Shown: positions 2,389-28,821 of the stretch, one piece after another
Layout: the number at the start of each line of letters is the position of its first letter
Numbering within the stretch: the first letter of the stretch is position 1
DNA from: an uncultured Actinomycetes bacterium
GTDB taxonomy: Bacteria > Actinomycetota > Thermoleophilia > RBG-16-64-13
DNA length: 64,000 nt
Direction of reading: 5' to 3'
NCBI GenBank assembly: GCA_963806155.1
Contig: CAWDXC010000009.1
Coordinates: 120,726-184,725 of the forward strand
The notes under the pieces: generated by a model
Database searches by the model: none
Told to the model about the DNA's origin: nothing
Seen by the model: only the letters and a program-made list of their open reading frames with translations
Translations under genes and position numbers: made by a program

Positions 2389-3927
2389 CTACAAGGGGTT
2401 CACCACCGGGTACGGTCCTTTGGAGATGCCGAGGTATACGGTCGAACCCGGCGCTACCGAGCTTTCCGGTGGCGGCAGTTGGGCGAACAGCTCACCCTGT
2501 GGAGCCAGCGACGTGAAGATCTCGACGCTGACTGCGACTAGGCCAAGCTCTTCGAGCGTCGCGGTCGCTTCCTCCAGCGACATCCCGCGTACATCGGGCA
2601 CTATGACGAACTCAGCCGGCCTGGGTCCCATGGAGACCACGATCCCCACCTTTATGCCCGGCTCGGTGATGCTCCCGGCCACGGGCGCCTGCAGACCGAC
2701 AACGCCCTGGGCGACCGTGTCGCTGTAGACGTCGACGATAACGACCCCGTAGCTCAGGTCTTGCAGGGCTTTGACTGCGTCGGCCTCCGCCTTCCCGACC
2801 ACGTTGGGCATCGTCACCGTCTCAGGCGGCTGCGGGCCCTGAGACACGGTTATGGCTACCGCGCTCCCCCGCTTCGCGGTCGCGCCGCCGGCCGGATCCT
2901 GGCTCACCACCAGGCCCACGGCCACGGTGTCGCTGAATGTCGCGTTCGGGACCGCCGCGAAGCCTGCATCCTCTAGGGCTTTCGCCGCATCCGCCTCGCT
3001 CTTGCCGGCTACATCCGGGACTGTGGCTTCTGGGTTCTTACCCTGCGAGACGATGATGTCCACTCTCGTCCCGGGCTCGACGGCGATGCCCCCTTCCGGC
3101 GACTGGCTGATGACGATACCTTCCGCGGCCTCTTCATCGTAGGAGGCCTTGGACTGCACCTCGTATCCGGCGTCGTTCAGGGCCTGGGTGGCTTCATCCT
3201 GGCTCATGCCAACGACATTGGGAACGAGCGTCTCTTGCACCCCGGCGGATATCACCACGGTCACCTCTGAGCCCGGGGCGGCCTTCTCACCGGCCGCGGG
3301 CGATTGATCGACGACCGTCCCCGGTTCGGCCTCGTTCTCGACGGCCACAGATTTCACCTTGAAACCGGCAGCCGTCAGCGTCTCCGTGGCGCCGTCGAGT
3401 GTCTGTCCCAGTACATCGGGGACCTCGACCTCGGCCTTGCCGGCCACGACCACGTCCACCGCGGTCCCCTGCTCAACTTGCTCTCCAACGTCCGGTTTCT
3501 GGCTGACGATCTGTCCCTCTTCGATCCCCACCGGGACTTCCGACGTGTAGTCGACTTTGCCGAGCTCGAGCTCGACGTCGTTGAGTGCGCCCACACCCTC
3601 GGAGACGGTCAGCCCCTTCAGATCGGGGACATCGGCGGTATTGCTGCGGTACACGCCTATGACCACGAGACCGGCTACTATCAGAGCCAGGAACACCCCC
3701 AGCAGGATCCACAACCAGAGCAGGGATCTCTTCTTCTCGGGGGGTGGCGCCGATTCAGACGTCCACGTCGGCTCGTGGTGATCAGGCCCTCCTGCGCCTT
3801 GTGGCGGAGGTACCGGCGGTGGGGTGCCAGGCGGCGTCGGGGGTTGCGAGGAAGCAGGCGGAGGCGTCTGCGGTGGAGGCGAGGCCTGGCCGCCTGCCTG
3901 CTGATCCATTCCTTGCTGGTTGTCCAT
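2389..3927 (-). CDS. Membrane-anchored protein with six PASTA domains and no kinase domain
   Basis: Pro/Gln-rich N-terminus, one TM helix, then six VP(D/N)V.G...Q.P..G repeats; GGAGG RBS before ATG 3927. Confidence 0.9.
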   Translation of the reverse strand: MDNQQGMDQQAGGQASPPPQTPPPASSQPPTPPGTPPPVPPPQGAGGPDHHEPTWTSESAPPPEKKRSLLWLWILLGVFLALIVAGLVVIGVYRSNTADVPDLKGLTVSEGVGALNDVELELGKVDYTSEVPVGIEEGQIVSQKPDVGEQVEQGTAVDVVVAGKAEVEVPDVLGQTLDGATETLTAAGFKVKSVAVENEAEPGTVVDQSPAAGEKAAPGSEVTVVISAGVQETLVPNVVGMSQDEATQALNDAGYEVQSKASYDEEAAEGIVISQSPEGGIAVEPGTRVDIIVSQGKNPEATVPDVAGKSEADAAKALEDAGFAAVPNATFSDTVAVGLVVSQDPAGGATAKRGSAVAITVSQGPQPPETVTMPNVVGKAEADAVKALQDLSYGVVIVDVYSDTVAQGVVGLQAPVAGSITEPGIKVGIVVSMGPRPAEFVIVPDVRGMSLEEATATLEELGLVAVSVEIFTSLAPQGELFAQLPPPESSVAPGSTVYLGISKGPYPVVNPL

Positions 3928-4186
3928 CCTCTGCTCCCTCCCGTGCCGTCGCTTTCCGAGCTCTGAGTGTGCACTGAGACACACTCCGGTGGTGCGCCAA
4001 GCCTTCCAGCCATGGTCTATACCCTATGTCACCTGGTCGTACTCCCCCTTGAGGCTACGACCGCGGGCAGGCCGGAGTCGTGTGCACAGTCTAGCTTCTT
4101 TGTGGGCACACTATCCCCTTTCTCAAACCGATGCCTTTCCACTAGAAACGGACCAGGCGTGCAAATGACGCGCTTGTCCGCAACAG

Positions 4187-12814: not shown

Positions 12815-13030
12815 TCAGGTCGACGCCTGGACTTTGACCGGCAGCGATCCCAACTCCAGCCGAGACCAGTCGACAACCGTTGAAGCCCGATCGATATCGA
12901 TGCCGACCAAACGGCCCGACTCATCAAAGTCCAGAACGATGCCAGGAGCGACCTCGCGGGAGTCGACGCTCGCTCTCTCTGAGAGATCGATATAGAGGGA
13001 ATCGGTCTCTGGATAGTACTGGAATCTCAC
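12815..13030 (-). CDS. DUF2283-domain protein (putative antitoxin)
   Basis: YYPETDSLYI.L.....DS.EV..GIVLDFD..G.LVGI.I motif; GAGG RBS before GTG. Confidence 0.9.
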   Translation of the reverse strand: MRFQYYPETDSLYIDLSERASVDSREVAPGIVLDFDESGRLVGIDIDRASTVVDWSRLELGSLPVKVQAST

Positions 13031-13032
13031 GG

Positions 13033-13197
13033 CTACACCTCTCGGTAGTTCCTATCTGGGAAGGCGTTGTGGACGGTGCCTGCCGTTGGGCTGGTGTTCG
13101 CGCCTCACCGGACTTCGCAATGCTTCCTCACACCATTCTCTGCGAATGTAGGGCCGTTCCGTAAGGCCTGCTCTTCGAAGTGCCACGTGGTCTTCAA
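13033..13197 (-). pseudogene. Internally deleted toxin-like partner of DUF2283
   Basis: Reads MKTTWHFEEQALR(K)RPYIRREWCEEALRSPVRREHQPNGR, then jumps to TVHNAFPDRNYREV*; the usual middle segment is missing. Extended -10 TGCTACTAT at 13210-13218. Confidence 0.7.
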
Positions 13198-13296
13198 GCC
13201 TTCCCTTTGATAGTAGCATCGGGGTTACGTTAGCCGCTGTCTGCCTGCCTGGTCCTTTGACTTTGGGCCGATCTTGGCACTGCCTCCTCCAGCAGC

Positions 13297-13352
13297 TTGT
13301 CATACGAACATTTGTTCGTATATAATCGCGCTCTCTTACGAACGTATGTTCA
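13297..13352 (+). promoter_or_regulatory. Sigma-A promoter with two LexA (SOS) boxes upstream of dnaE2
   Basis: TTGTCA (13297)-N18-TATAAT (13321); TACGAACATTTGTTCGTA fills the spacer (13303-13320); second box CGAACGTATGTTCA at 13339-13352. Confidence 0.9.
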
Positions 13353-13414
13353 GAACAAGGACCGTATTTTGAACTGTTGCTATCCATATTTCTAAAAATG
13401 CAACGTTCATTGCA

Positions 13415-16400
13415 ATGAACAGATATGACAATCCACCGGAAAACGGCCATTCCGACGGCCACTCTGATGGTCACCCCCGCGGCCATTCCAGCGGCCAACC
13501 CAGCGGCCAACCCAGCGGCCGCTTATCCGACTCGAGCACAGACACCCCGGATACGCCGCTCCATCGGTTCGCGGTGCAGCAGATACCGCCCAGTCACGAC
13601 TACATCCGACGGCACAGCACCGGCCCCGCTGAGCCGGCCGCACCCTGCTACGGCGCGATCCACAAGTTCGGCTACACCCGTCAGCTCAAGAGGCACGAAC
13701 AGCAGCCTTCTGCCGACGCCGGCACCTCGGCACACTCCCCCGTGGCGACCGATATTTCCACTCCCGACGTCTCGCCCGACACGTCCCCTGAGGCCTGCTC
13801 TGAGGCCTGCCCCTCCCCTTTCGTCCATCTCCACGTGCACTCGAACTTCTCGTTCCTCGACGGCGGGAGCCGGATCGAAGAGCTCGTCGCCCGCGCCGCC
13901 GAGCTGGGACAACCGGCCCTCGCTCTCACCGACCATGACGGCCTCTACGGCGCACTTCGTTTCGCCAAGGCCTGTGCCAAACACGGCATCAAGCCGATCT
14001 TCGGAGCTGAGGTACGGGTTGAGTCGTTGCTCGCCACCCACCGGCCGGACACCCACTCCGACGACCCTCACCATCTCGTCCTCCTGGCCGAGACCCGCGA
14101 GGGTTATGCCAATCTCTGTCGCCTTCTCTCAGCTGCCCACCTCGCCGATCCCAACCGCGAGCACCCACCTCTCCTGACCCTCGAGTCCCTGCGCATCCAC
14201 GCCGAAGGACTCATCTGCCTCACCGCCTGCCGCCACGGGGAAGTAGGGCACCTAATCGACAGCGGCCGCCCCGCCGACGCTCTCCGCGCACTTCTTCGCC
14301 TCCGCGACATCTTCGGCCCCGATCACCTTTATGTAGAGCTTCAGTATTTCCGATACGAACCTCACCAAGAGGCCCATGCCGGCCAGCATGGCTCCGCCGT
14401 CTACCGCAAGACCCCGGCCGTCGGCGGCCGCCTCCGTCATCGCCCCACGGACGAGCATACGACCCACGCACCCAAGCAGCCTGAGGCCTCATCGGCCGTT
14501 TCACTCTCCCCTTCGCCTGCCACTGCTGATTCAGGCCGCGCGGACTCCTCGGTGCTTACCTCACCATTCCCTCTCGGTGCTACCACCGTTACCGACTCCC
14601 ATTTTCCTCCCCTGCGTAACTCTTACAATGCAACCATAGTTGCAATCGGGCCCGCCCTTGAACCCACCAAACCTGGGGAAAACCATCCGACTCCTGCACC
14701 ACCCAAGCCCCGCCCTGATCTCCCCCAGGGGCATCCACAACGCCTCAATCCCTCAGACTACGATGTAGGGTTTCACCGAAACGGTCAACCATGGCGTTTG
14801 TCTTGCCTCACCTACTGCCTCCACCTCACCCGCCTAGCCCAGGCATGCGACGTCCCCACGGTCCTCACTACAAATGCTCACTATGCGGGTAAAACCGACC
14901 GCGCCGTCCATCTGATCTGCCGGGCAGCTGGCCGTGATCAGCCTCTCTCCGAGTATCCGGATGCGATACCCGGTTCACGCTATCTACAGTCTCTATTCTC
15001 ACTTGAGAATTTAGTATCACCGTTTCTGAAGTTAGTCGATTCATCTAGTGAAGTCACATCCGGTGGCGTGCTGGGCGTTGAAGTGCATATAGATATTGAC
15101 GCAATAGAACTTGCATACAGAAGGGAGGGGGCGGCGGCCGAAGCCACCAACGATCTACCTGCGCCGCGCCCCTCACATCCCCTGGCCACCGCGTGGGAGA
15201 TCGCCCAGCGCTGCAACGTCGACCTCGACCTCGGCACCTTCCACTTCCCCAAGGTCGAGGTGCCGGCGGGCGAGACCGCCTACTCGCTCCTGGCTAAGCG
15301 CTGCTTTCGCGGGATCGCCCGTCGCTACAAACCGGTGCCTCCCCGAGCCGTGGAGCTTCTCGAGAAGGAGCTCCGCATGATCCAGCAGATGGATTTCGCT
15401 CATTATTTCCTGGTGGTTCACGACATCGTCAGGTGGGCGCGCACCCAGGGCGTCGCATGCAGCGGCCGGGGTAGCGCAGGCAACTCCATCGTATGTCACG
15501 CGCTCGATATCACCGCCAGCGAGCCTATCCGCCACAACCTGCTGTTCGAGCGGTTCCTCAATCCCAACCGCCGGGAGATGCCCGACATCGACGTGGACTT
15601 CTGTTCCTCGCGCCGGGACGAGGTGATCGAACACATCTACCAGACTTTCGGATCAGAAAACGTGGCCGTCGTGGCCAACGTCAACACCATGTCACCCCGC
15701 TCGGCGGTCCGGATCGTGGCCGAAGCCCTGGGATTCGCCCCCACCGAGATCAACGCCCTGGCCAAGCACGTGCCCCGGCACGGGGATGCCGCCCGCATCC
15801 GGGAGTATCTGGCCGGCGCCTGGCCGGAGCTGCGCGACTCGCCGCTGCAAGACGGCGCCCACGCCATCCCCGCGACCGACGGGTCGCCCGACGGCGCCGG
15901 CGGCACCGCGGGACGCCCCGAGGGCCGCTACAGCCGCTTCCTCGACCTGGTCGAGCGCCTCGACTCCTTCCCCCTGCACCTGGGCACCCATCTGGGGGGC
16001 TTCGTCATCGCCGACCGGCCCATCACCTACTACGCCCCCCTCCAGTGGGCGGCCAAGGGAGTGGTGGTCATCCAGTTCAACAAGGACGATGTCGCCGCCC
16101 TGGGCCTGGTCAAGATGGACATCCTCGGCCTCCGTACCCACTCGGCCGTCTCCGAGACCGTCCACCTCATCCAGCAGCGCACCGGGCGCCGCATCCGCCC
16201 CTACGACCTCCCTCCCGACGATCCCGCCGCCTACGAGATCATCAGCAACGGGGGCTCCATCGGACTCTTCCAGCTGGAGTCGGCCGGCCAGCGCAACCTC
16301 GCCTCCCGCCTGCAGGAGCGGGACTTCGACGACGTCATCGCCGCCATCGCCCTCTACCGGCCCGGTCCACTGGAGGCCGAGATGATCGGCCCCTTCATCG

Positions 16401-18394
16401 ACCGTCGCTGGGGTCTAGAGCCGGTCCGTCTCCCCCACCCCGCCATGGCCGAGGCGGTGGCCGACACCTACGGGGTCATCCTCTACCAGGAGCAGGTGCT
16501 CCGCATCGCCCAATCGGTGGCCGGGTTCGATCTGGCCGATGCCGACTCCCTCCGCCGCGCCATGACCCGCGACCGTAGCCGGGAGGAGATGGCCAAGATC
16601 GGCGAGACCTTCATCGCCCGCGCCGTCGCCCGGGGAGTGCCGAAGGAAGCAGCCCGCGAGGTCTTCCGCCAGCTGGAGGGCTTCGCCGCCTACGGGTTCA
16701 ACAAGAGCCATTCGGTGTGCTTCGCCGTCATCAGCTACGCGACGGCCTGGCTCAAGGCCTACTACCCGGCCGAGTTCCTGTGCGCTGTGCTGAACAACCA
16801 GCCCATGGGCTTCTACACCCCGCGCACGGTGCTGAACGACGCCCGCCGCTTTGGGCTGGAAGTCCGGCCGCTGGATATCAACCTGTCGGGGCGGGGGTTC
16901 ACGGTGGAAGATGAGATACCGCCTGATCCGTGGAGTGGTACCAGGATGGAATGCCGGGCGGCTAATGATGCTTCCGGGTGGGATGACGGGGCGGCGACTG
17001 ACACCCTTCTACAGTCGGCTGCGCCGGAAGCCACACACACCATTGGGGCGCAGCCCGCCGGGGCCGCGAGCGGCGCCCTCGGGACGTGCGTCCGCGAGGC
17101 GGTTAGTTCGATCGCCCGTCCCACGGGGACGAAAGCCCCCTACGACCCCTTCGCCCAAGCCTGGACCGCCGAGCACGACTGGGGCCTCACCGAGGCCGAT
17201 CTAGCCGAGCTACAGGCCGAGCAGGAGGGGGAGCAGGCCTATGCCGAAGCTCTGCGGGCGGCGCTGGAGCAGGCGCATGAAGGTGAGACGCACTGTGAGG
17301 ATGGGGAAACCCAGGGTGACCGGCCAACCCCGGGGGATGGGGCAAAATCTGGTCCCGTTTCGACGGACGGTGCCGCCACCCCACCGCCCAGTCCGGCACC
17401 GGATGACGAGCCACCCCCGGCCGAGGGCGCAGTCCCCGAGGCGGGGCGCGAAGCGCCGCCGCCGTCACCGCCGGCCGGCGCCGCCGGTCCCCCCTGCCCC
17501 GGCGACCTCCTCCTCCCCCGCGCGCCCCGCGCCCGCGGAGGCGTGGAGCCCGGAGCCTGCCTCGCTCCCAGCTGCGGCATCGCCCCGGATGCCGGCCGGG
17601 CCCTGCGGGTGGGATTCTCTTATCTCAAGCAGATGGGCGACCGTACCCTCGACCGCATCGAGGAGGAACGCCGCCACGGCCCCTTCACCAGCTTCGAGGA
17701 CTTCTACCTGCGCACCCGCGTCGACTATCCCGTAGCCGAGAACCTCATCCGGGTGGGCGCCTTCGCCTCCCTGGAGCCCGACCGCACCGAACTGCTCTGG
17801 CGCCTGCCTCTGCTACACGACCGGCTGGAGGCGCTCTCTGGATCCTCCGGGGGAAGGCGCGGCCAGTTGCGGGCGTTCTTCTCTCCGCCGAGCCGCGCCG
17901 GACTGGAGAGGCACTGGACCTCAGAGGACAAGGTCCGCTCCGAGCTCGATCTCCTGGGACTCACCGTGAGCTGCCATCCCCTGAAGCTCTACGAGGAAGA
18001 GCTCCGCCGGATGGGGGTGCGGATGAGCTACGAGCTTCCCGGCCTGGGAGACGAGATGCCGGTGACGGTGGCCGGCGTCTACGAGCGGGCCCAGAACCCC
18101 TGGATGCGCTCGGGAAGAAGGACCATGTTCCTGACCTTAGAGGACGCTTACGGCCTCTTCGAGTGCGTCTGCTTCGAGAGCAAGCTGGCCAGGATCGCCC
18201 CGGTGGTGGCCCGGGCCAGCTACTTCCTGGTCCGGGGACGCCTGCAGAACAACCACAGGCGGGGGCTGGCCATCGTGGCCGAGGAGGTCTTCGATCTGGA
18301 GGAGGCGCTGGTTAGGAGGCGGGCTGGAAAGCGAGGGGCCGGTCCGGGGGCGGGGACGACCGCTATGCGCCGTGGCCCAGATCAGTATCTCTGA
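13415..18394 (+). CDS. dnaE2: Error-prone DNA polymerase III alpha (DnaE2) with N-terminal extension and large in-frame insertions; start codon uncertain
   Basis: PHP motifs HLHVHSNFSFLDG and LTDHDG; RGSAGNS, PDIDVDF, KMDILG, RPGP, GFNKSH; DnaE2-type LNNQPMGFY; C-terminal OB fold; SOS boxes upstream. Confidence 0.92.
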   Translation: MNRYDNPPENGHSDGHSDGHPRGHSSGQPSGQPSGRLSDSSTDTPDTPLHRFAVQQIPPSHDYIRRHSTGPAEPAAPCYGAIHKFGYTRQLKRHEQQPSADAGTSAHSPVATDISTPDVSPDTSPEACSEACPSPFVHLHVHSNFSFLDGGSRIEELVARAAELGQPALALTDHDGLYGALRFAKACAKHGIKPIFGAEVRVESLLATHRPDTHSDDPHHLVLLAETREGYANLCRLLSAAHLADPNREHPPLLTLESLRIHAEGLICLTACRHGEVGHLIDSGRPADALRALLRLRDIFGPDHLYVELQYFRYEPHQEAHAGQHGSAVYRKTPAVGGRLRHRPTDEHTTHAPKQPEASSAVSLSPSPATADSGRADSSVLTSPFPLGATTVTDSHFPPLRNSYNATIVAIGPALEPTKPGENHPTPAPPKPRPDLPQGHPQRLNPSDYDVGFHRNGQPWRLSCLTYCLHLTRLAQACDVPTVLTTNAHYAGKTDRAVHLICRAAGRDQPLSEYPDAIPGSRYLQSLFSLENLVSPFLKLVDSSSEVTSGGVLGVEVHIDIDAIELAYRREGAAAEATNDLPAPRPSHPLATAWEIAQRCNVDLDLGTFHFPKVEVPAGETAYSLLAKRCFRGIARRYKPVPPRAVELLEKELRMIQQMDFAHYFLVVHDIVRWARTQGVACSGRGSAGNSIVCHALDITASEPIRHNLLFERFLNPNRREMPDIDVDFCSSRRDEVIEHIYQTFGSENVAVVANVNTMSPRSAVRIVAEALGFAPTEINALAKHVPRHGDAARIREYLAGAWPELRDSPLQDGAHAIPATDGSPDGAGGTAGRPEGRYSRFLDLVERLDSFPLHLGTHLGGFVIADRPITYYAPLQWAAKGVVVIQFNKDDVAALGLVKMDILGLRTHSAVSETVHLIQQRTGRRIRPYDLPPDDPAAYEIISNGGSIGLFQLESAGQRNLASRLQERDFDDVIAAIALYRPGPLEAEMIGPFIDRRWGLEPVRLPHPAMAEAVADTYGVILYQEQVLRIAQSVAGFDLADADSLRRAMTRDRSREEMAKIGETFIARAVARGVPKEAAREVFRQLEGFAAYGFNKSHSVCFAVISYATAWLKAYYPAEFLCAVLNNQPMGFYTPRTVLNDARRFGLEVRPLDINLSGRGFTVEDEIPPDPWSGTRMECRAANDASGWDDGAATDTLLQSAAPEATHTIGAQPAGAASGALGTCVREAVSSIARPTGTKAPYDPFAQAWTAEHDWGLTEADLAELQAEQEGEQAYAEALRAALEQAHEGETHCEDGETQGDRPTPGDGAKSGPVSTDGAATPPPSPAPDDEPPPAEGAVPEAGREAPPPSPPAGAAGPPCPGDLLLPRAPRARGGVEPGACLAPSCGIAPDAGRALRVGFSYLKQMGDRTLDRIEEERRHGPFTSFEDFYLRTRVDYPVAENLIRVGAFASLEPDRTELLWRLPLLHDRLEALSGSSGGRRGQLRAFFSPPSRAGLERHWTSEDKVRSELDLLGLTVSCHPLKLYEEELRRMGVRMSYELPGLGDEMPVTVAGVYERAQNPWMRSGRRTMFLTLEDAYGLFECVCFESKLARIAPVVARASYFLVRGRLQNNHRRGLAIVAEEVFDLEEALVRRRAGKRGAGPGAGTTAMRRGPDQYL
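13445..13528 (+). repeat. Seven degenerate 12-bp tandem repeats in the dnaE2 5' extension
   Basis: GGCCA(T/C/A)(T/C)CC(A/G)(G/A)C-like units encoding GHSD GHSD GHPR GHSS GQPS GQPS GRLS. Confidence 0.85.
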
Positions 18395-18505
18395 GTCTGC
18401 GGCATCGAGGGCGCCGATCTCCGACCAATTCTGTGCCTCGTGACCGTTGACGCGCAGCCGGTCCGCCCAAGCGGGCGAGAGGTTGACGTCGACCACGACC
18501 CTCAT
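18365..18505 (-). pseudogene. 5' stub of a DUF5615 PIN-like toxin
   Basis: MRVVVDVNLSPAW...GHEA.NWSEIGA.DA.DSEI..WA..H matches the family N-terminus; similarity ends at about 47 aa, where it runs into the dnaE2 3' end. Confidence 0.75.
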
Positions 18506-18774
18506 CCGGTGACAAGGTCCACTTCTCGCTCTTCTGCCCGCCAGGCTGCGTAGGCCAGAGCCTGAGCGATATCCTCTCGTTGGAGATACGGGTAGGCGGC
18601 AAGAATCCGGTCAGCGTCGTAGCCGGTGGACACGAGCCCCACTATCGTCCCGACGGTCACGCGAGTGCCCCGCACGCAAGGTTTGCCGCCCATGATGGCC
18701 GGGTTGGTGGTGATATGATTGGGGTGATGCGGTGCATGCTCGGTCCCCTTCGGTCCCAATGATGCCCTCGGCAT
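18502..18774 (-). CDS. DUF433-domain antitoxin; start uncertain (an out-of-frame ATG with RBS lies at 18737)
   Basis: ITTNPAIMGGKPCVRGTRVTV..I......IL..YP.L..EDI..AL.YAA; ATGA overlap with the DUF5615 stub. Confidence 0.88.
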   Translation of the reverse strand: MPRASLGPKGTEHAPHHPNHITTNPAIMGGKPCVRGTRVTVGTIVGLVSTGYDADRILAAYPYLQREDIAQALAYAAWRAEEREVDLVTG

Positions 18775-20023: not shown

Positions 20024-21127
20024 CTACTCGGACAGGACCAATCCTTCAGCGATCTTCAGCAGTTCTTCCACGGACAGATTGGTGAGTATCTCCACCCTCG
20101 TGCCGTCCACCAGCCAGATGAGCGAATTGGCGTCGTCATAGGTGAGAGACGGAATCTCGGGCGGGGTGCCCTGGGTCTCTGAGCCCGGAGCGCCGGCAGT
20201 GCCGTCATCCGGCTCTTGAACCACCTGGGTGCCACTTTCGACACTCGCGCCTGCAGACCCCGCGGGGCTGCCCTCGACGTGCACGCTGGGCGCGTCGCTT
20301 TCGCCGCCGCCCGCGGTCGCGCCGGATACCGTTACCGTCTCTGCCCCTTCGGGTGGACCCAGCGGCTCCACCGTTCCCGACAGGCCTGTCCTCAGTACGG
20401 CGGGTGCACCGTTTACCTCAGTCGCCTGTCCTTCCGGAAGCGACTCGCCCGAATCGGTGGCCGTCTTGACGACGAGAAAACGATCGCCGTTCTGGTACAG
20501 CGCCTGACCTTCCTCCCGCGCGGCCCCGCTCGAAGCCACCTCTCTGCCACCGACATCGCCGGCCGCGTCCGATCCTTCCGACGCGAGCACGCTCAGCGAG
20601 CCGGCCACATAGACAGGCATCGGTTCGAAGCCCTCAGGCAGATAACCGAGCTGCGGGGACTTCATTATGTCGATGTTGAACACGCCGGCGAAGAAGCCGC
20701 CGGCCGCGGCACGCGTCGAGGGCACGCCGACTATCACGGCGGCTGCGAGCACTACGACACCGACTGCTCCAAATGCGATCCTCCATCTCATCTTCATCGT
20801 GTGATCTCCTTGTGGGTGAGAACGAGTGGCGGGTCGGCTGTCCGGCGCCGGACGCGTGACCCATAGGGTGAACCGCCGGGGAGGAGTGCGCACGTCCTCC
20901 GCGACTCTCGCCTGCAGGCGATCCCACGCCCGCGGGGAGGGGGCTGCCTCGGCAGCCATGGACTCAAGGGAATCGTTCACTCGGCACCGGCTAAGGCTAA
21001 GGGCCGACAGTTCCCCCTCGCATGAGGCACATCCGGCCAGATGGGCCTCGATCAACGTCCGCTCCGACGGCATGACCTCGGAATCCAGGTACGGTACCAG
21101 CGCTCTCTTCACTTCGCGGCATTTCAT
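20024..21127 (-). CDS. Zinc-finger (zf-HC2/ZAS) anti-sigma factor with TM helix and extracytoplasmic domain
   Basis: MKCREV...YLD.E.....IEAHLAGCASC (HxxxCxxC), TM at about aa 115-135; directly downstream of the ECF sigma. Confidence 0.88.
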   Translation of the reverse strand: MKCREVKRALVPYLDSEVMPSERTLIEAHLAGCASCEGELSALSLSRCRVNDSLESMAAEAAPSPRAWDRLQARVAEDVRTPPRRFTLWVTRPAPDSRPATRSHPQGDHTMKMRWRIAFGAVGVVVLAAAVIVGVPSTRAAAGGFFAGVFNIDIMKSPQLGYLPEGFEPMPVYVAGSLSVLASEGSDAAGDVGGREVASSGAAREEGQALYQNGDRFLVVKTATDSGESLPEGQATEVNGAPAVLRTGLSGTVEPLGPPEGAETVTVSGATAGGGESDAPSVHVEGSPAGSAGASVESGTQVVQEPDDGTAGAPGSETQGTPPEIPSLTYDDANSLIWLVDGTRVEILTNLSVEELLKIAEGLVLSE

Positions 21128-21129
21128 CT

Positions 21130-21687
21130 CTAGGCCTCCGTCATAGAGCGGACAGGGCAGGGGAAGTCGGATTCCAGATCGTCGCGCATGAGTCGCATGG
21201 CATGATTCAAACGGGACTTCACGGTTCCGAGAGGCAGATCCATGATCTCGGCTATCTCGGCATAGGAGAGATCCCAGTAGTGGCGCAGGATCACCACCAC
21301 CCGCAGCTTCCTGCTCAGCCTATCGAGAGCCCGGCGAACCGAGTCCTCCTCGGCGTAGCGGTCGGGCAGGAGATGGGCTCCGCTCGGTATCTGCTCCTCG
21401 ACGACCTCCTCGAGACTGCCGGTCGGGGGACGGCCTCTCCGCCAGTTGAGACAGCGATTGACCGTGATGCGGTAGAGCCAGGTACTGAAGGCCCCTCGTC
21501 CTGGGTCGTATTCGTCGAGCGAGCGATGCACCTGGAGGAAGACCTCTTGCAGGATGTCCTCGGCGTCGGAGGCGGTTCCCAACGTAAGGTAGGTGGTCCG
21601 GTAGACCAGGTTCTTGTACTGCTCGAATAGCAGGCCGAACGCCTCTTCATCGCCGGCCTGACAGCGTCGTATGAGGACCAGATCCAC
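21130..21687 (-). CDS. ECF RNA polymerase sigma factor
   Basis: AEDILQEVF, FSTWLYRI..N and LSY.EIA......GTVKSRL; GGAG RBS before GTG 21687. Confidence 0.93.
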   Translation of the reverse strand: MDLVLIRRCQAGDEEAFGLLFEQYKNLVYRTTYLTLGTASDAEDILQEVFLQVHRSLDEYDPGRGAFSTWLYRITVNRCLNWRRGRPPTGSLEEVVEEQIPSGAHLLPDRYAEEDSVRRALDRLSRKLRVVVILRHYWDLSYAEIAEIMDLPLGTVKSRLNHAMRLMRDDLESDFPCPVRSMTEA

Positions 21688-21722
21688 GTAGGCTCCCGGT
21701 GCGAGTACTGCCTTTCCCTCAA

Positions 21723-21749
21723 GGTACACCGGCTGAGCCAAGAAAGTTC
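21723..21749 (-). promoter_or_regulatory. Possible autoregulatory ECF promoter
   Basis: GAACTT followed 14-16 nt later by GTGTA/GTACC on the minus strand. Confidence 0.3.
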
Positions 21750-26739: not shown

Positions 26740-28623
26740 TCACAACGACTTTGCCCCCGCTTGGCACAATGCGTCGTAGTTCGCATCGAATGCCGGCTCA
26801 CCGTCCGGCACAAACAAGACTGATCCGTCGCGCCCGCGAGTGAGCAGAACTCGGTAGCTGTTCAGCCTCAACTTGTGCGGGTCTCGGGCGTGTGATCGGC
26901 GCTGAGGGGGGCTTTGCCAGGCTCGCCCGTCCCAGCGAAGGTCGACACCCCAGCCGACAATCGGCAGATCGAGTTCCAGACCCTGACACTGGAATTCGGT
27001 CGCGGCCGAACTGAGCTGGCAGCAGGAGCCGAGTGATTCGGGATCATCGTAGTACCAGGGGCCTACCCTCATCCGCTGGGTGCTGTAGAAGTCGGTGGGG
27101 ATCCCAAAGGGATTCAGGCGTGCTTTGGACGAGCCCAGAAACCCATATCGCTTATCCTGCTCGACGCGGTACCTCTCTCGTGCGTAGCCGGTCGCTCGCT
27201 GTAAGTCCCTCGTGATGTAGAGCCGATAGCCCTGCTTCGCCATCTTCTCCGAGAGCGTCGCCGCGTCATCCAGCCTGCCGCCGAGTAAGTCCTGCACCCA
27301 GTTCTGGACATCCTCAGCCAGGTGGGAGCGGAGCGATATGTCCAGGTCCAGTGCCTCGCTCTCGTCGAGCCGACTTGCTGCCGTGAACAAACCCGCGATC
27401 TTGCTCGGGCAGTGCACGATCCAGGGGTCATGACTGTTCCTAATGGCATCGTTCCACTGACCGAGACCGGCCTCCTCGCCCAGATAGATCTCCTGACCCT
27501 CCCCTATGAGACCCACCATCAACGCCCAGGACCGCTTGCGCGAGCCAATGAGCAGGAAGTCCTCAGGTTCGGAGAGATTGTGCCCCCTCTTCTCGTGGAC
27601 TCGCTCAGCATCCCACGCCCGCTGAGCCTCGTCGTATACCCAGACGTGCTCCTCAGGCATGCGAGCGCTGGTCCCTCCATACTGTTTGAGAAAGCCATGG
27701 ACATCCTGAACGAACACCTTGCTTTGAAGAGCGTACTGGAGAACCTCCACGAGCGGGCCATTGCCAGACAGAAAGACGGCCGAACGTTTGCTTCCCATGT
27801 CTCCAAAATGGTTCTCGTAGACGAACTGCAGACCAACCAGGGTCTTCCCCGAGCCCGGGACTCCGGTGATGAGAGCAAGATGCAGCTCTTGAGCGTTGCG
27901 CGCCTTATGCGCCGCCGCGACCAGCGTGGCTATGGTCTCCGGGATGCCGGCGCTCTGCGCCTTGCGGATCTGGGGCAAGGGTTCGTGCTCGAAGATCCGA
28001 CGCGCGGCGCTCACCAGGGAGGGCAGCGGTGAATAGTCGGCGTCGATCCAAGCCTCCGCTTCGACTGGCTCATCTGGCGCTCGCCGTTCCAAGGTGACAA
28101 TCGCTTCCTCTAGGCCCTGGGGATTGACCACGGTGACGTCCCCCAGTTGACGCCTCGCCTCCCTACCGCGGGTCAGCACGAGGAGGGGGTCAACCAGCTT
28201 GTCGTGAGAAGCCGCGTGGTAGTGACGAAGATCGCGCGCGTACGCGGCAACCTGGTCCACGTGCGCTTGCAGAAGAGTGCCGGACTCTTTGAACTCGAGC
28301 ACCATGACCTGAGACCCAGTGAGGATCACCACATCTGGACGCCGGCCCCGTTCTCGCGGCAATTCATACTCGAAGACGACGGCCCAGTTCTCGGCCCTCG
28401 GATTAGACGCGACGGCCCCGCCGAGCACTGCGGTCATTATTGTGAACTCACCCCGCCAGGCTTCCATCTGGCCACCATCTGGCTGCATACCCATCAATTG
28501 CAGGTGGCGGGCACGAAGCGAAGCCAGCAGGTCGGACTGCGTCAGTTCCAGGAAATCGGAGACCGTGCCGTGCCAGCCACAAGGAGCCGTGCTGAAGCCG
28601 GCGACCGCGCTATCTGAAGCCAT
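26740..28623 (-). CDS. PD-(D/E)XK nuclease plus DUF2075 (Schlafen-group-3-like) helicase
   Basis: FEYELP...RRPDVV.L......LEFK; Walker A GVPGSGKT, Walker B YDEAQR, QGLELD and YRVLLTRGR. Confidence 0.85.
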   Translation of the reverse strand: MASDSAVAGFSTAPCGWHGTVSDFLELTQSDLLASLRARHLQLMGMQPDGGQMEAWRGEFTIMTAVLGGAVASNPRAENWAVVFEYELPRERGRRPDVVILTGSQVMVLEFKESGTLLQAHVDQVAAYARDLRHYHAASHDKLVDPLLVLTRGREARRQLGDVTVVNPQGLEEAIVTLERRAPDEPVEAEAWIDADYSPLPSLVSAARRIFEHEPLPQIRKAQSAGIPETIATLVAAAHKARNAQELHLALITGVPGSGKTLVGLQFVYENHFGDMGSKRSAVFLSGNGPLVEVLQYALQSKVFVQDVHGFLKQYGGTSARMPEEHVWVYDEAQRAWDAERVHEKRGHNLSEPEDFLLIGSRKRSWALMVGLIGEGQEIYLGEEAGLGQWNDAIRNSHDPWIVHCPSKIAGLFTAASRLDESEALDLDISLRSHLAEDVQNWVQDLLGGRLDDAATLSEKMAKQGYRLYITRDLQRATGYARERYRVEQDKRYGFLGSSKARLNPFGIPTDFYSTQRMRVGPWYYDDPESLGSCCQLSSAATEFQCQGLELDLPIVGWGVDLRWDGRAWQSPPQRRSHARDPHKLRLNSYRVLLTRGRDGSVLFVPDGEPAFDANYDALCQAGAKSL

Positions 28624-28821
28624 ATTCGCCGCCATGCACCCCGCCCTAAGCAAGACAAGACGTTCTCGGTTCCTCTTCCCGCTGCTGGGTTAAGAAGAGC
28701 CTGTTCATCCTACAACTTCGTTTGGATACACAGAAGATCAATTGGAGTCACAGCCGCTCGAAAAGATCGCGGCAGCCCGCCACCCGTGGCCCTGGACTCA
28801 CCCCGGGCGGTATCTCACCAC

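Follow-up and report, generated by a model that had tools for sequence, protein, structure and literature searches.

The 64,000-nucleotide stretch analysed here, termed the window throughout (contig CAWDXC010000009.1 of assembly GCA_963806155.1, positions 120,726 to 184,725, from an uncultured Actinomycetes bacterium of the GTDB lineage Actinomycetota; Thermoleophilia; RBG-16-64-13), holds a gene for a C-family DNA polymerase of the dnaE2 type. In its protein, a core of the usual DnaE2 size (~1070 aa) is accompanied by extra sequence totalling ~590 aa. The gene is preceded by a promoter with two LexA boxes, and its most surprising feature is an array of a gene-specific 16-bp palindrome (PAL, TGCAAy-N4-rTTGCA), which is present at three places in the window, i.e., at the start codon and inside two of the extra segments. 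The positions of these features and of the neighbouring genes are collected in Table 1.

Table 1. Features of the polymerase locus (nucleotide positions refer to the window, residues to the polymerase; A1, alignment described in the text)
Feature	Position (nt)	Strand	Residues (aa)	Remark
dnaE2-type C-family DNA polymerase gene	13415..18394	+		single uninterrupted open reading frame, 1659 aa
PHP domain			138-310	Pfam match
pol3_alpha domain			625-905	Pfam match
Finger domain			910-1073	Pfam match
HHH_6 domain			1394-1460	Pfam match
OB domain			1550-1627	Pfam match
Catalytic motif MPDIDVDF, Asp724 and Asp726	15578..15601	+		aligned to E. coli and Taq active-site motifs
KMDILGL, third catalytic Asp902	16112-16132	+		invariant alignment column
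GQLRAFF, clamp-binding-like motif	17861..17881	+	1483-1489	aligns with 'GQLDLF' of 5fku_A
Sigma-70-type promoter	13297..13326	+		TTGTCA, 18-nt spacer, TATAAT; 11/12 consensus matches
LexA box 1, CGAACATTTGTTCG	13305..13318	+		perfect Gram-positive/actinobacterial SOS box, within promoter spacer
LexA box 2, CGAACGTATGTTCA	13339..13352	+		1 mismatch; just 3' of the -10 hexamer
5' PAL element	13375..13418	+		core TGCAACgttcATTGCA at 13399-13414 abuts ATG at 13415
PAL island 1	14607..14654	+		core TGCAACcataGTTGCA at 14629-14644; disordered linker of insert 1; 28.1 bits
PAL island 2	15077..15124	+		degenerate core CGCAATagaaCTTGCA at 15100-15115; insert 2; 19.9 bits, E 3.5e-5
N-terminal extension	13415..13816	+	1-134	from A1; predicted disordered
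Motif QQIPPSHDYIRR	13577-13612	+		conserved short motif of N-terminal extension
Motif YGAIHKFGYTRQLKRHE	13649-13699	+		conserved short motif of N-terminal extension
Insert 1	14348..14824	+	312-470	~155 aa; inside PHP domain
ins1a (YEPHQEAHAGQHG..VY.K....GGRLRH)	14354-14440	+		conserved module of insert 1
ins1b (RPDLPQGHPQRLNPSDYDVGFH..G.PWRLSCLTYC)	14711-14818	+		conserved module of insert 1
Insert 2	15029..15175	+	539-587	~49 aa; between PHP domain and palm; variable, predicted disordered
Gly-rich insert (thumb region)	15854..15925	+	814-837	from A1
Insert 3	16913..17599	+	1167-1395	229 aa; loop of beta-hairpin GFTVED/ALRVGF, fingers-(HhH)2 boundary
Helical module (YDPFAQAWTAEHDWGLTEADLAEL.AEQEG)	17141-17233	+		conserved, insert 3
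C-terminal segment (GDLLLPRAPRARGGVEPGACLAPSCGIAPDAGR)	17501-17599	+		conserved, insert 3
Protein with six PASTA repeats	2389-3984	-		neighbour gene
zf-HC2 anti-sigma factor	20024-21127	-		neighbour gene
ECF sigma factor	21130-21741	-		neighbour gene
Schlafen-group-3-like helicase	26740-28653	-		type also beside dnaE2 in related locus L169

Polymerase type and promoter

The protein belongs to the C-family polymerases (Pol III alpha/DnaE), as it has the PHP, palm/thumb/fingers, (HhH)2 and OB regions together with the catalytic Asp triad. In an alignment of 18 long homologues and 6 standard-length relatives (A1), Asp724, Asp726 and Asp902 were invariant, as was YGFNKSH (aa 1093-1099, uninterrupted). 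The 'GQLDLF' stretch of the E. coli alpha chain, with which GQLRAFF aligns, is its internal clamp-binding site, and QLRAF was conserved across the clade of long homologues and absent in its sister group (A1). The PHP metal site retains eight of nine positions (H138, H140, D149, H174, E199, H220, C272, A488, H489; canonical motif HHDHEH[C/H]DH), the change being Asp to Ala at A488 within TTNAHY, and a site matching at 8/9 counts as 'inactive' under the criterion of a recent survey of DnaE2 proteins (PMC12926913). The open reading frame (ORF) stops 32 aa past the OB fold and the tau-binding C-terminal domain, which is universally lacking in DnaE2 (PMC3919608), is absent. At 18340-18394 the C-terminal tail (..GAGTTAMRRGPDQYL) differs from the clade-conserved PGAGT.AIPKKVG, likewise in the syntenic locus L003, and the clade tail was not recovered in the window by any simple frameshift.

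The promoter arrangement was the same in all homologous loci examined, and its combination with LexA boxes (consensus CGAAC-N4-GTTCG) is common to the window and each of the 16 related loci scanned, which makes the gene a candidate for LexA (SOS) regulation. Most of the standard-length Thermoleophilia sister genes examined also carry a perfect LexA box. The leader that follows (13353-13398, ~80 nt) has no evident Shine-Dalgarno sequence, and homologous leaders are alike; it holds a conserved ATTTTG ~40 nt 5' of the ATG, which could open a short upstream ORF in some loci.

Judged by its sequence, the polymerase is probably of the DnaE2 type, i.e., a predicted SOS-inducible translesion enzyme, because it has no tau-binding C-terminal domain, a noncanonical PHP site and a LexA-box promoter, and the long homologues appear as a real, conserved and undescribed DnaE2 variant. 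That the protein is instead the replicative DnaE1 of its lineage is very unlikely, even though the NCBIfam models give practically equal scores (DnaE2 model 823 bits, cut-off 939; DnaE1 model 821 bits, cut-off 1002) and cannot separate the two types here, nor for the minimal forms and the sister group. The label 'DNA polymerase III alpha subunit' given to several long forms by JGI, the nearly intact PHP site (8/9) and the presence of a clamp motif would also suit a replicase. Against this, a pair of LexA boxes overlaps the promoter of every member scanned, the tau-binding domain is missing, and the nearest standard-length relatives are named error-prone polymerases and have a LexA box as well. 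Moreover, DnaE1 of M. tuberculosis matched less well than the DnaE of E. coli or Taq (1.6e-119 vs. 1.5e-143), which argues that the protein is not an orthologue of the actinobacterial replicase.

No imuA or imuB was found beside the gene in the 9 homologue contigs with called genes or among the window ORFs scanned, and no imuB was found by Pfam beside the sister-clade genes.

Extra segments: conservation, predicted structure and origin

The insert boundaries were derived from E. coli, Taq and M. tuberculosis DnaE together with A1. The match to E. coli DnaE fell into four blocks (query 135-319, 588-789, 841-1166, and 1399-1634, corresponding to E. coli 5-179, 255-466, 493-827, and 833-1079). 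Insert 1 lies between the strand YVELQ and the helix preceding TTNAHY, and its middle part is a linker rich in P/A/S/T between ins1a and ins1b. The Gly-rich insert reaches 86% GC over 15851-15919 and ranges in length from 0 to ~60 aa in the clade. The clade-conserved pieces of insert 3 are YDPFAQAWTAEHDWGLTEADLAEL.AEQEG and GDLLLPRAPRARGGVEPGACLAPS.GIAPDAGR, and its linkers are rich in P/A/G/E; in general, the linkers show a high content of Pro, Ala, Ser, Thr, Gly, and Glu. The clade-conserved pieces of the N-terminal extension are QRIPPSHDYIRR, GPKDGWARGPADP (which the window copy lacks) and YGxIHKFGYTRPLKKHE, whose IHKFGYTR part may resemble the N-terminal motif of RecA.

An earlier note, made by a model from the letters of the window, had described a 1659-aa uninterrupted ORF with additional sequence in the PHP domain, after it, in a Gly-rich stretch and between GFTVE and ALRVGF, and these positions agree with the alignment-based boundaries. 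Its reading of GFNKSH as intact and of insert 3 as a helical-looking core with Pro/Ala-rich flanks is borne out by the motif at aa 1093-1099 and by the helical module between P/A/G/E-rich linkers, and its hand count of GC was exact (58/140 = 41.4% at 14981-15120). The 134-aa N-terminal extension, the two upstream LexA boxes and the nucleotide-level palindromes go beyond that account.

The lowest GC of the gene (35%) is found at 14985-15055, directly 5' of PAL island 2, where the DNA encodes YLQSLFSLENLVSPFLKLVDSS with two TTA codons; this stretch is common to the related locus L162 and not to more distant homologues. A further conserved insert after LQWAA in the palm/thumb region (KRLPVRDASP.G.DRR.GAKDAGSARS.SATGATED.GS.., A1 columns ~1262-1318) is present in P0014, P0017, P0024 and P0025, lineages that are not each other's closest relatives, and absent from the window.

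In the protein database, ~50 clusters of long homologues were found (1350-1750 aa, 60-80% identity, 1500-2650 bits), below which the scores fall sharply to ~1000 bits, the level of standard-length proteins, many of them named 'error-prone DNA polymerase' by JGI. The long forms stem from NCBI, ENA, JGI, and Logan assemblies and, where named, belong to Thermoleophilia, Gaiellales or Actinomycetota metagenome-assembled genomes (MAGs). Assembly or binning artefacts of one genome have virtually no probability as the source of the inserts, since dozens of assemblies, obtained independently by different projects and on different sequencing platforms, contain the same architecture as intact ORFs; in favour of an artefact one could cite only the frameshifts in the gene in the related nanopore MAG loci L003, L007, and L012. 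These three orthologues (Microflora Danica MAGs) have 2-7 frame changes, some of them inside invariant core motifs, and because the changes also strike the invariant core they are most likely long-read assembly errors and not signs of pseudogenisation.

In a neighbour-joining tree (1040 well-aligned core columns, no bootstrap), 41 long and intermediate forms were monophyletic on a long stem. The first branches of the clade are P0046 (1178 aa) and P0040 (1213 aa), which carry only ins1b and a short insert 3, with an additional PAL-bearing stub of insert 1 in P0040; in such minimal homologues, inserts 1 and 3 are of ~35-60 aa only. As the first branches carry only minimal inserts, the sequences suggest that the inserts were gained by stepwise accretion. 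A profile of insert 1 gave just 14 matches in an exhaustive search of 1.84 billion representative proteins; the five examined were fragments of the polymerase clade, and for the others the positions matched are compatible with this same site. As far as this search of sequences reaches, insert 1 is confined to the polymerase clade and occurs in no other protein family.

The ratio of nonsynonymous to synonymous substitution rates (dN/dS), computed by the Nei-Gojobori method against three related loci, separates two kinds of sequence within the segments. The values for ins1b (0.02-0.11), the helical module of insert 3 (0.09-0.13) and its C-terminal module (0-0.13) are similar to those of the catalytic core (0.09-0.19), ins1a reaches 0.10-0.50 (the upper value in the closest comparison), the N-terminal extension lies at 0.3-0.5, and the linkers (0.57-0.99; 0.6-1.0 for those of insert 3) and insert 2 (0.6-0.9) approach neutrality. 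The inserts consist, therefore, of short conserved modules under purifying selection joined by near-neutral linkers that are predicted to be disordered.

AlphaFold2 models are in line with this division. The minimal homologue P0046 (mean predicted local distance difference test score, pLDDT, 84.6; predicted template modelling score 0.83) was modelled with a Pol III alpha fold, with the Taq, M. tuberculosis, and E. coli alpha subunits as top Foldseek matches. In this homologue, ins1b was predicted as an ordered loop (pLDDT 84-87) lying between the PHP strand 198-203 and the next helix, and the short insert 3 as three small helices (pLDDT 83-87) within the hairpin loop (strands 885-887/940-942). 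For the window protein, the prediction covers residues 1-1170: pLDDT was below 50 in residues 1-129 (N-terminal extension), in residues 348-429 (linker of insert 1) and over most of insert 2, and 52-68 in the Gly-rich insert, while ins1a was a low-confidence hairpin and ins1b was ordered (pLDDT 76-94). In barrels of the PHP type the C-terminal ends of the strands form the active site, and since insert 1 follows a barrel strand, it would leave the barrel on the active-site face. Pfam, PDB sequence and PDB profile searches with the N-terminal extension and inserts 1, 2, and 3 gave no match.

This mixture of sequence types bears on the question whether the inserts are neutral filler without a function of its own, be it expansions tolerated in surface loops or DNA captured there. 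The linkers alone would fit such an origin, with a dN/dS of 0.6-1.0, low-complexity P/A/G/S-rich sequence, predicted disorder, and lengths that differ among homologues. Filler is, however, improbable for the segments as they stand: the modules show no variation across the clade and a dN/dS of 0-0.15 (for ins1a, the closest comparison gives up to 0.5), order is predicted for ins1b and for the first module of insert 3, and the AT-rich islands persist despite a GC content at third codon positions (GC3) of ~0.8. In addition, the insert DNA has no similarity to plasmid or phage DNA, as searches of plasmid and phage collections gave no match.

Inteins, introns and other intervening sequences of the self-splicing or mobile kind, which would be lost before the enzyme matures, are an extremely improbable explanation of the inserts. 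No Hint, LAGLIDADG or HNH domain was detected by Pfam in the whole protein or in the separate inserts, the junctions in A1 lack the Cys/Ser/Thr plus His-Asn residues, and the inserts of the minimal homologues (~35-60 aa) are much too small to be inteins. Linkers are free to change in both length and sequence, while protein-level selection acts on the short modules. These points outweigh the AT-rich DNA within inserts 1 and 2 and the general experience that large in-frame insertions in replicative polymerases are often inteins. No Rfam family, introns included, reached the gathering score over 13000-18600 (chance-level matches only, E ~0.8). An apparent extra 2.9 kb in the related locus L083, considered as a candidate intein, was due to a distant spurious high-scoring segment pair, the actual gene being 1395 aa.

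The two origins offered by the earlier note can be judged on this basis. Its lineage-specific architecture without inteins is upheld by the monophyly of the clade, the purifying selection on the modules, the confinement of insert 1 to this family, the absence of Hint or endonuclease domains in Pfam and the unfit junction residues, and its reservation that the inserts might be unique to one assembly falls with their recurrence in many independent assemblies. Capture of foreign DNA finds no backing, as there is no plasmid or phage match, selection acts on the modules, and the AT-rich islands represent cis elements that are conserved, not foreign DNA in decay.

Palindromic elements at the start codon and within the inserts

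In the 5' PAL element, an AT-rich flank TCCATATTTCTAAAAA precedes the core, and the profile score is 28.3 bits (E 7e-8). The core of island 1 is read in frame as N-A-T-I-V-A and that of island 2, with GTGCAT ahead of it, as D-A-I-E-L-A; the linkers of inserts 1 and 2 contain, per homologue, 1-4 copies of a recurrent peptide, [ML]-H-x-x-C-x-A-T-x-[IV]-A. The start-codon PAL is present in most related loci with the extension and internal PALs in nearly all of them, the loop is always 4 nt long, and the reading frame is constant wherever the start codon could be assigned. The internal islands carry the same half-site array as the start codon (TGCAt..TGCAAy-N4-rTTGCA).

Codon usage was examined by protein-alignment columns, i.e., independently of how the PAL sites had been found. 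Among 94 conserved Ala columns, only the four PAL alanines (406, 410, 563, and 567) use GCA (10/10, 10/11, 11/11, and 8/11 homologues, respectively), and these are also the four most AT-rich at the third position (AT3) of 310 conserved fourfold-degenerate columns, with an AT3 of 0.82-1.0 compared to a mean of 0.18. The GC3 minima coincide with the PAL islands in every high-GC homologue. Because GCA is restricted to the PAL alanines, AT3 is extreme and the GC3 minima fall on the islands, the AT-rich PAL islands are selected at the nucleotide level.

The motif is specific to this gene. Of the exact sequence TGCAA-N6-TTGCA, 28 copies were counted in 342 kb of clade loci, in every case in or at the gene, and a single one in 1.86 Mb of other loci, and a profile built from 36 islands found only three sites in the 64-kb window. 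A regulon or a dispersed repeat comparable to the Rickettsia palindromic elements or to miniature inverted-repeat transposable elements was therefore rejected, given three copies in 64 kb that all belong to this gene and one copy in 1.86 Mb elsewhere. PAL was not considered a variant LexA box either: both have the same 5-4-5 layout, but the first two half-site positions are swapped (GCAAC-N4-GTTGC vs. CGAAC-N4-GTTCG). An internal promoter was discarded since a promoter scan found the SOS promoter only, and so was a structured RNA, the fold having 5 pairs, an energy of -3.3 kcal/mol and no covariation. None of the papers in the literature collection searched mentions the motif.

In the 5' copies the half-sites are invariant, there are no compensatory changes and the stem is weak; additional TGCA half-sites, spaced ~10 bp, lie upstream of the 5' PAL. 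Taken from these sequence features, PAL is probably an array of putative operator sites for a sequence-specific, likely multimeric DNA-binding factor, and looks like a second control element beside the LexA boxes.

The elements could alternatively act at the RNA level, as hairpins or protein sites in the mRNA that affect translation initiation, pausing or decay. This is a possibility on the unlikely side, to which the position of the 5' PAL directly before an AUG with no evident Shine-Dalgarno sequence lends some weight, as do the orientation of the internal PALs (all on the sense strand and in one frame) and the richness of the islands in genome-rare codons, TTA included. A DNA operator is nevertheless the preferred reading: the stem is short (5-6 bp; consensus energy -3.3 kcal/mol), the half-sites do not vary and show no compensatory changes, the 5' copies often have a C/A mismatch at the sixth position, and the ~10 bp spacing of the upstream TGCA half-sites fits a DNA-binding multimer better.

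Outside the usual positions, a LexA-like box (TGAACACATGTTCA) followed after ~45 nt by a further PAL copy (1732-1747) was observed in L169 at 1671-1747. This extra PAL lies 1.27 kb 5' of dnaE2, beside a truncated gene remnant whose intact counterpart is found in L007, and together with the box is probably a relic duplication of the dnaE2 leader.

Proposed mechanism and known systems

We lean towards a joint reading in which the window encodes an SOS-inducible DnaE2-type enzyme whose core was enlarged stepwise, with the modules serving as built-in surfaces and PAL as a second lock. The conserved modules would act as interaction or regulatory surfaces: insert 3 would leave its hairpin in front of the clamp/DNA-binding (HhH)2 domain, and the motifs of the N-terminal extension resemble short linear motifs that bind partners. 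In combination with the protein's own QLRAF clamp motif, the modules may let DnaE2 work without adjacent adaptors of the ImuA/ImuB type. The three PAL sites would be bound by a sequence-specific factor, with the main operator at the start codon and two intragenic auxiliary sites, and could place a mutagenic enzyme under a second lock, through looping or as a roadblock.

AlphaFold models of the M. tuberculosis mutasome place the contacts of ImuB on the PHP domain and the (HhH)2 region of DnaE2 (PMC12926913), and inserts 1 (in PHP) and 3 (just before (HhH)2) are in or beside these modelled regions. The replacement of ImuA/ImuB contacts by the inserts is plausible and gains some support from the insert positions, the similarity of conserved motifs in the disordered segments to partner-binding short linear motifs and the protein's own clamp motif. 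It would also agree with the lack of neighbouring imuA/imuB in the 9 contigs and among the window ORFs scanned. A more far-reaching version, which we hold to be unlikely, is a self-contained mutasome under two-key control, in which the modules replace ImuA/ImuB (or PolY/ImuB-C/RecA), a repressor bridges the linker-hosted operators to the start-codon operator, and expression requires both LexA and the second factor to be released.

Several points weigh against the joint reading. On the side of the enzyme, the NCBIfam models do not tell DnaE1 from DnaE2, the tree was obtained by neighbour-joining without bootstrap, and AlphaFold2 gave confidence values only, with neither contacts nor docking sites of the modules. 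The scan for imuA/imuB was confined to gene neighbourhoods on contigs, and split imuA/imuB cassettes are common. As for the palindromes, the 5' PAL is missing in L083, L161, and L166, the sites also encode a recurring peptide and may have some role at the protein level, a role at the RNA level is possible, and no partner protein or PAL-binding factor was identified.

DnaE2 enzymes act as drivers of damage-induced mutagenesis and, in mycobacteria, of drug-resistance evolution, and how they are recruited and restrained where ImuA/ImuB are lacking is a question raised by the 2026 survey (PMC12926913). The clade would provide a natural experiment in this respect, with candidate adaptor surfaces inside the polymerase at the two modelled ImuB-binding regions and an accretion series from 1178 to ~1750 aa that shows the order of gain. 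The PAL array, if true, would be an unusually clear bacterial case of disordered linkers hosting cis-regulatory DNA and would point to an additional regulator of an SOS mutagenesis gene.

The closest known counterpart is DnaE2 of M. tuberculosis ('ImuC', an error-prone C-family polymerase that forms a mutasome with ImuA' and ImuB), which shares with the clade the PHP-Pol3-(HhH)2-OB organisation without a tau-binding domain, a LexA-box promoter, a noncanonical PHP metal site and a high-GC genome. By comparison, the clade protein has ~590 extra residues in five segments and its own QLRAF clamp-like motif, while the gene has no adjacent imuA/imuB in the contigs examined and carries the added gene-specific palindrome. 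DnaE2B and DnaE2X, described from genomes without ImuA/ImuB, are likewise DnaE2-type proteins not tied to an imuA-imuB cassette, and for a few DnaE2Bs no partner could be found (PMC12926913, Nucleic Acids Res 2026). That survey covers complete genomes and mentions Thermoleophilia 0 times, and the few mentions of 'insert' examined in it do not concern DnaE2. PolC provides a precedent for a large insertion in the PHP domain of a C-family polymerase (a DnaQ-type exonuclease), but its insert is a folded exonuclease domain at a different site, whereas that of the clade is a small ordered loop with a disordered linker that matched no known fold in Pfam and PDB searches.

For the palindromes, the nearest parallels are lac O2 inside lacZ and gal OI inside galE, which are intragenic auxiliary operators. 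These are alike in that copies of a palindromic, promoter-proximal operator inside coding sequence constrain synonymous sites; they differ from the putative PAL operators, of which there are 3-5 copies, up to 1.7 kb downstream, in the linkers of lineage-specific inserts. Rickettsia palindromic elements are in-frame palindromic repeats inside genes that are dispersed genome-wide. They share with PAL the palindromic AT-rich DNA kept in frame in surface-exposed parts of proteins, whereas PAL is confined to one gene and found at orthologous positions across the clade.

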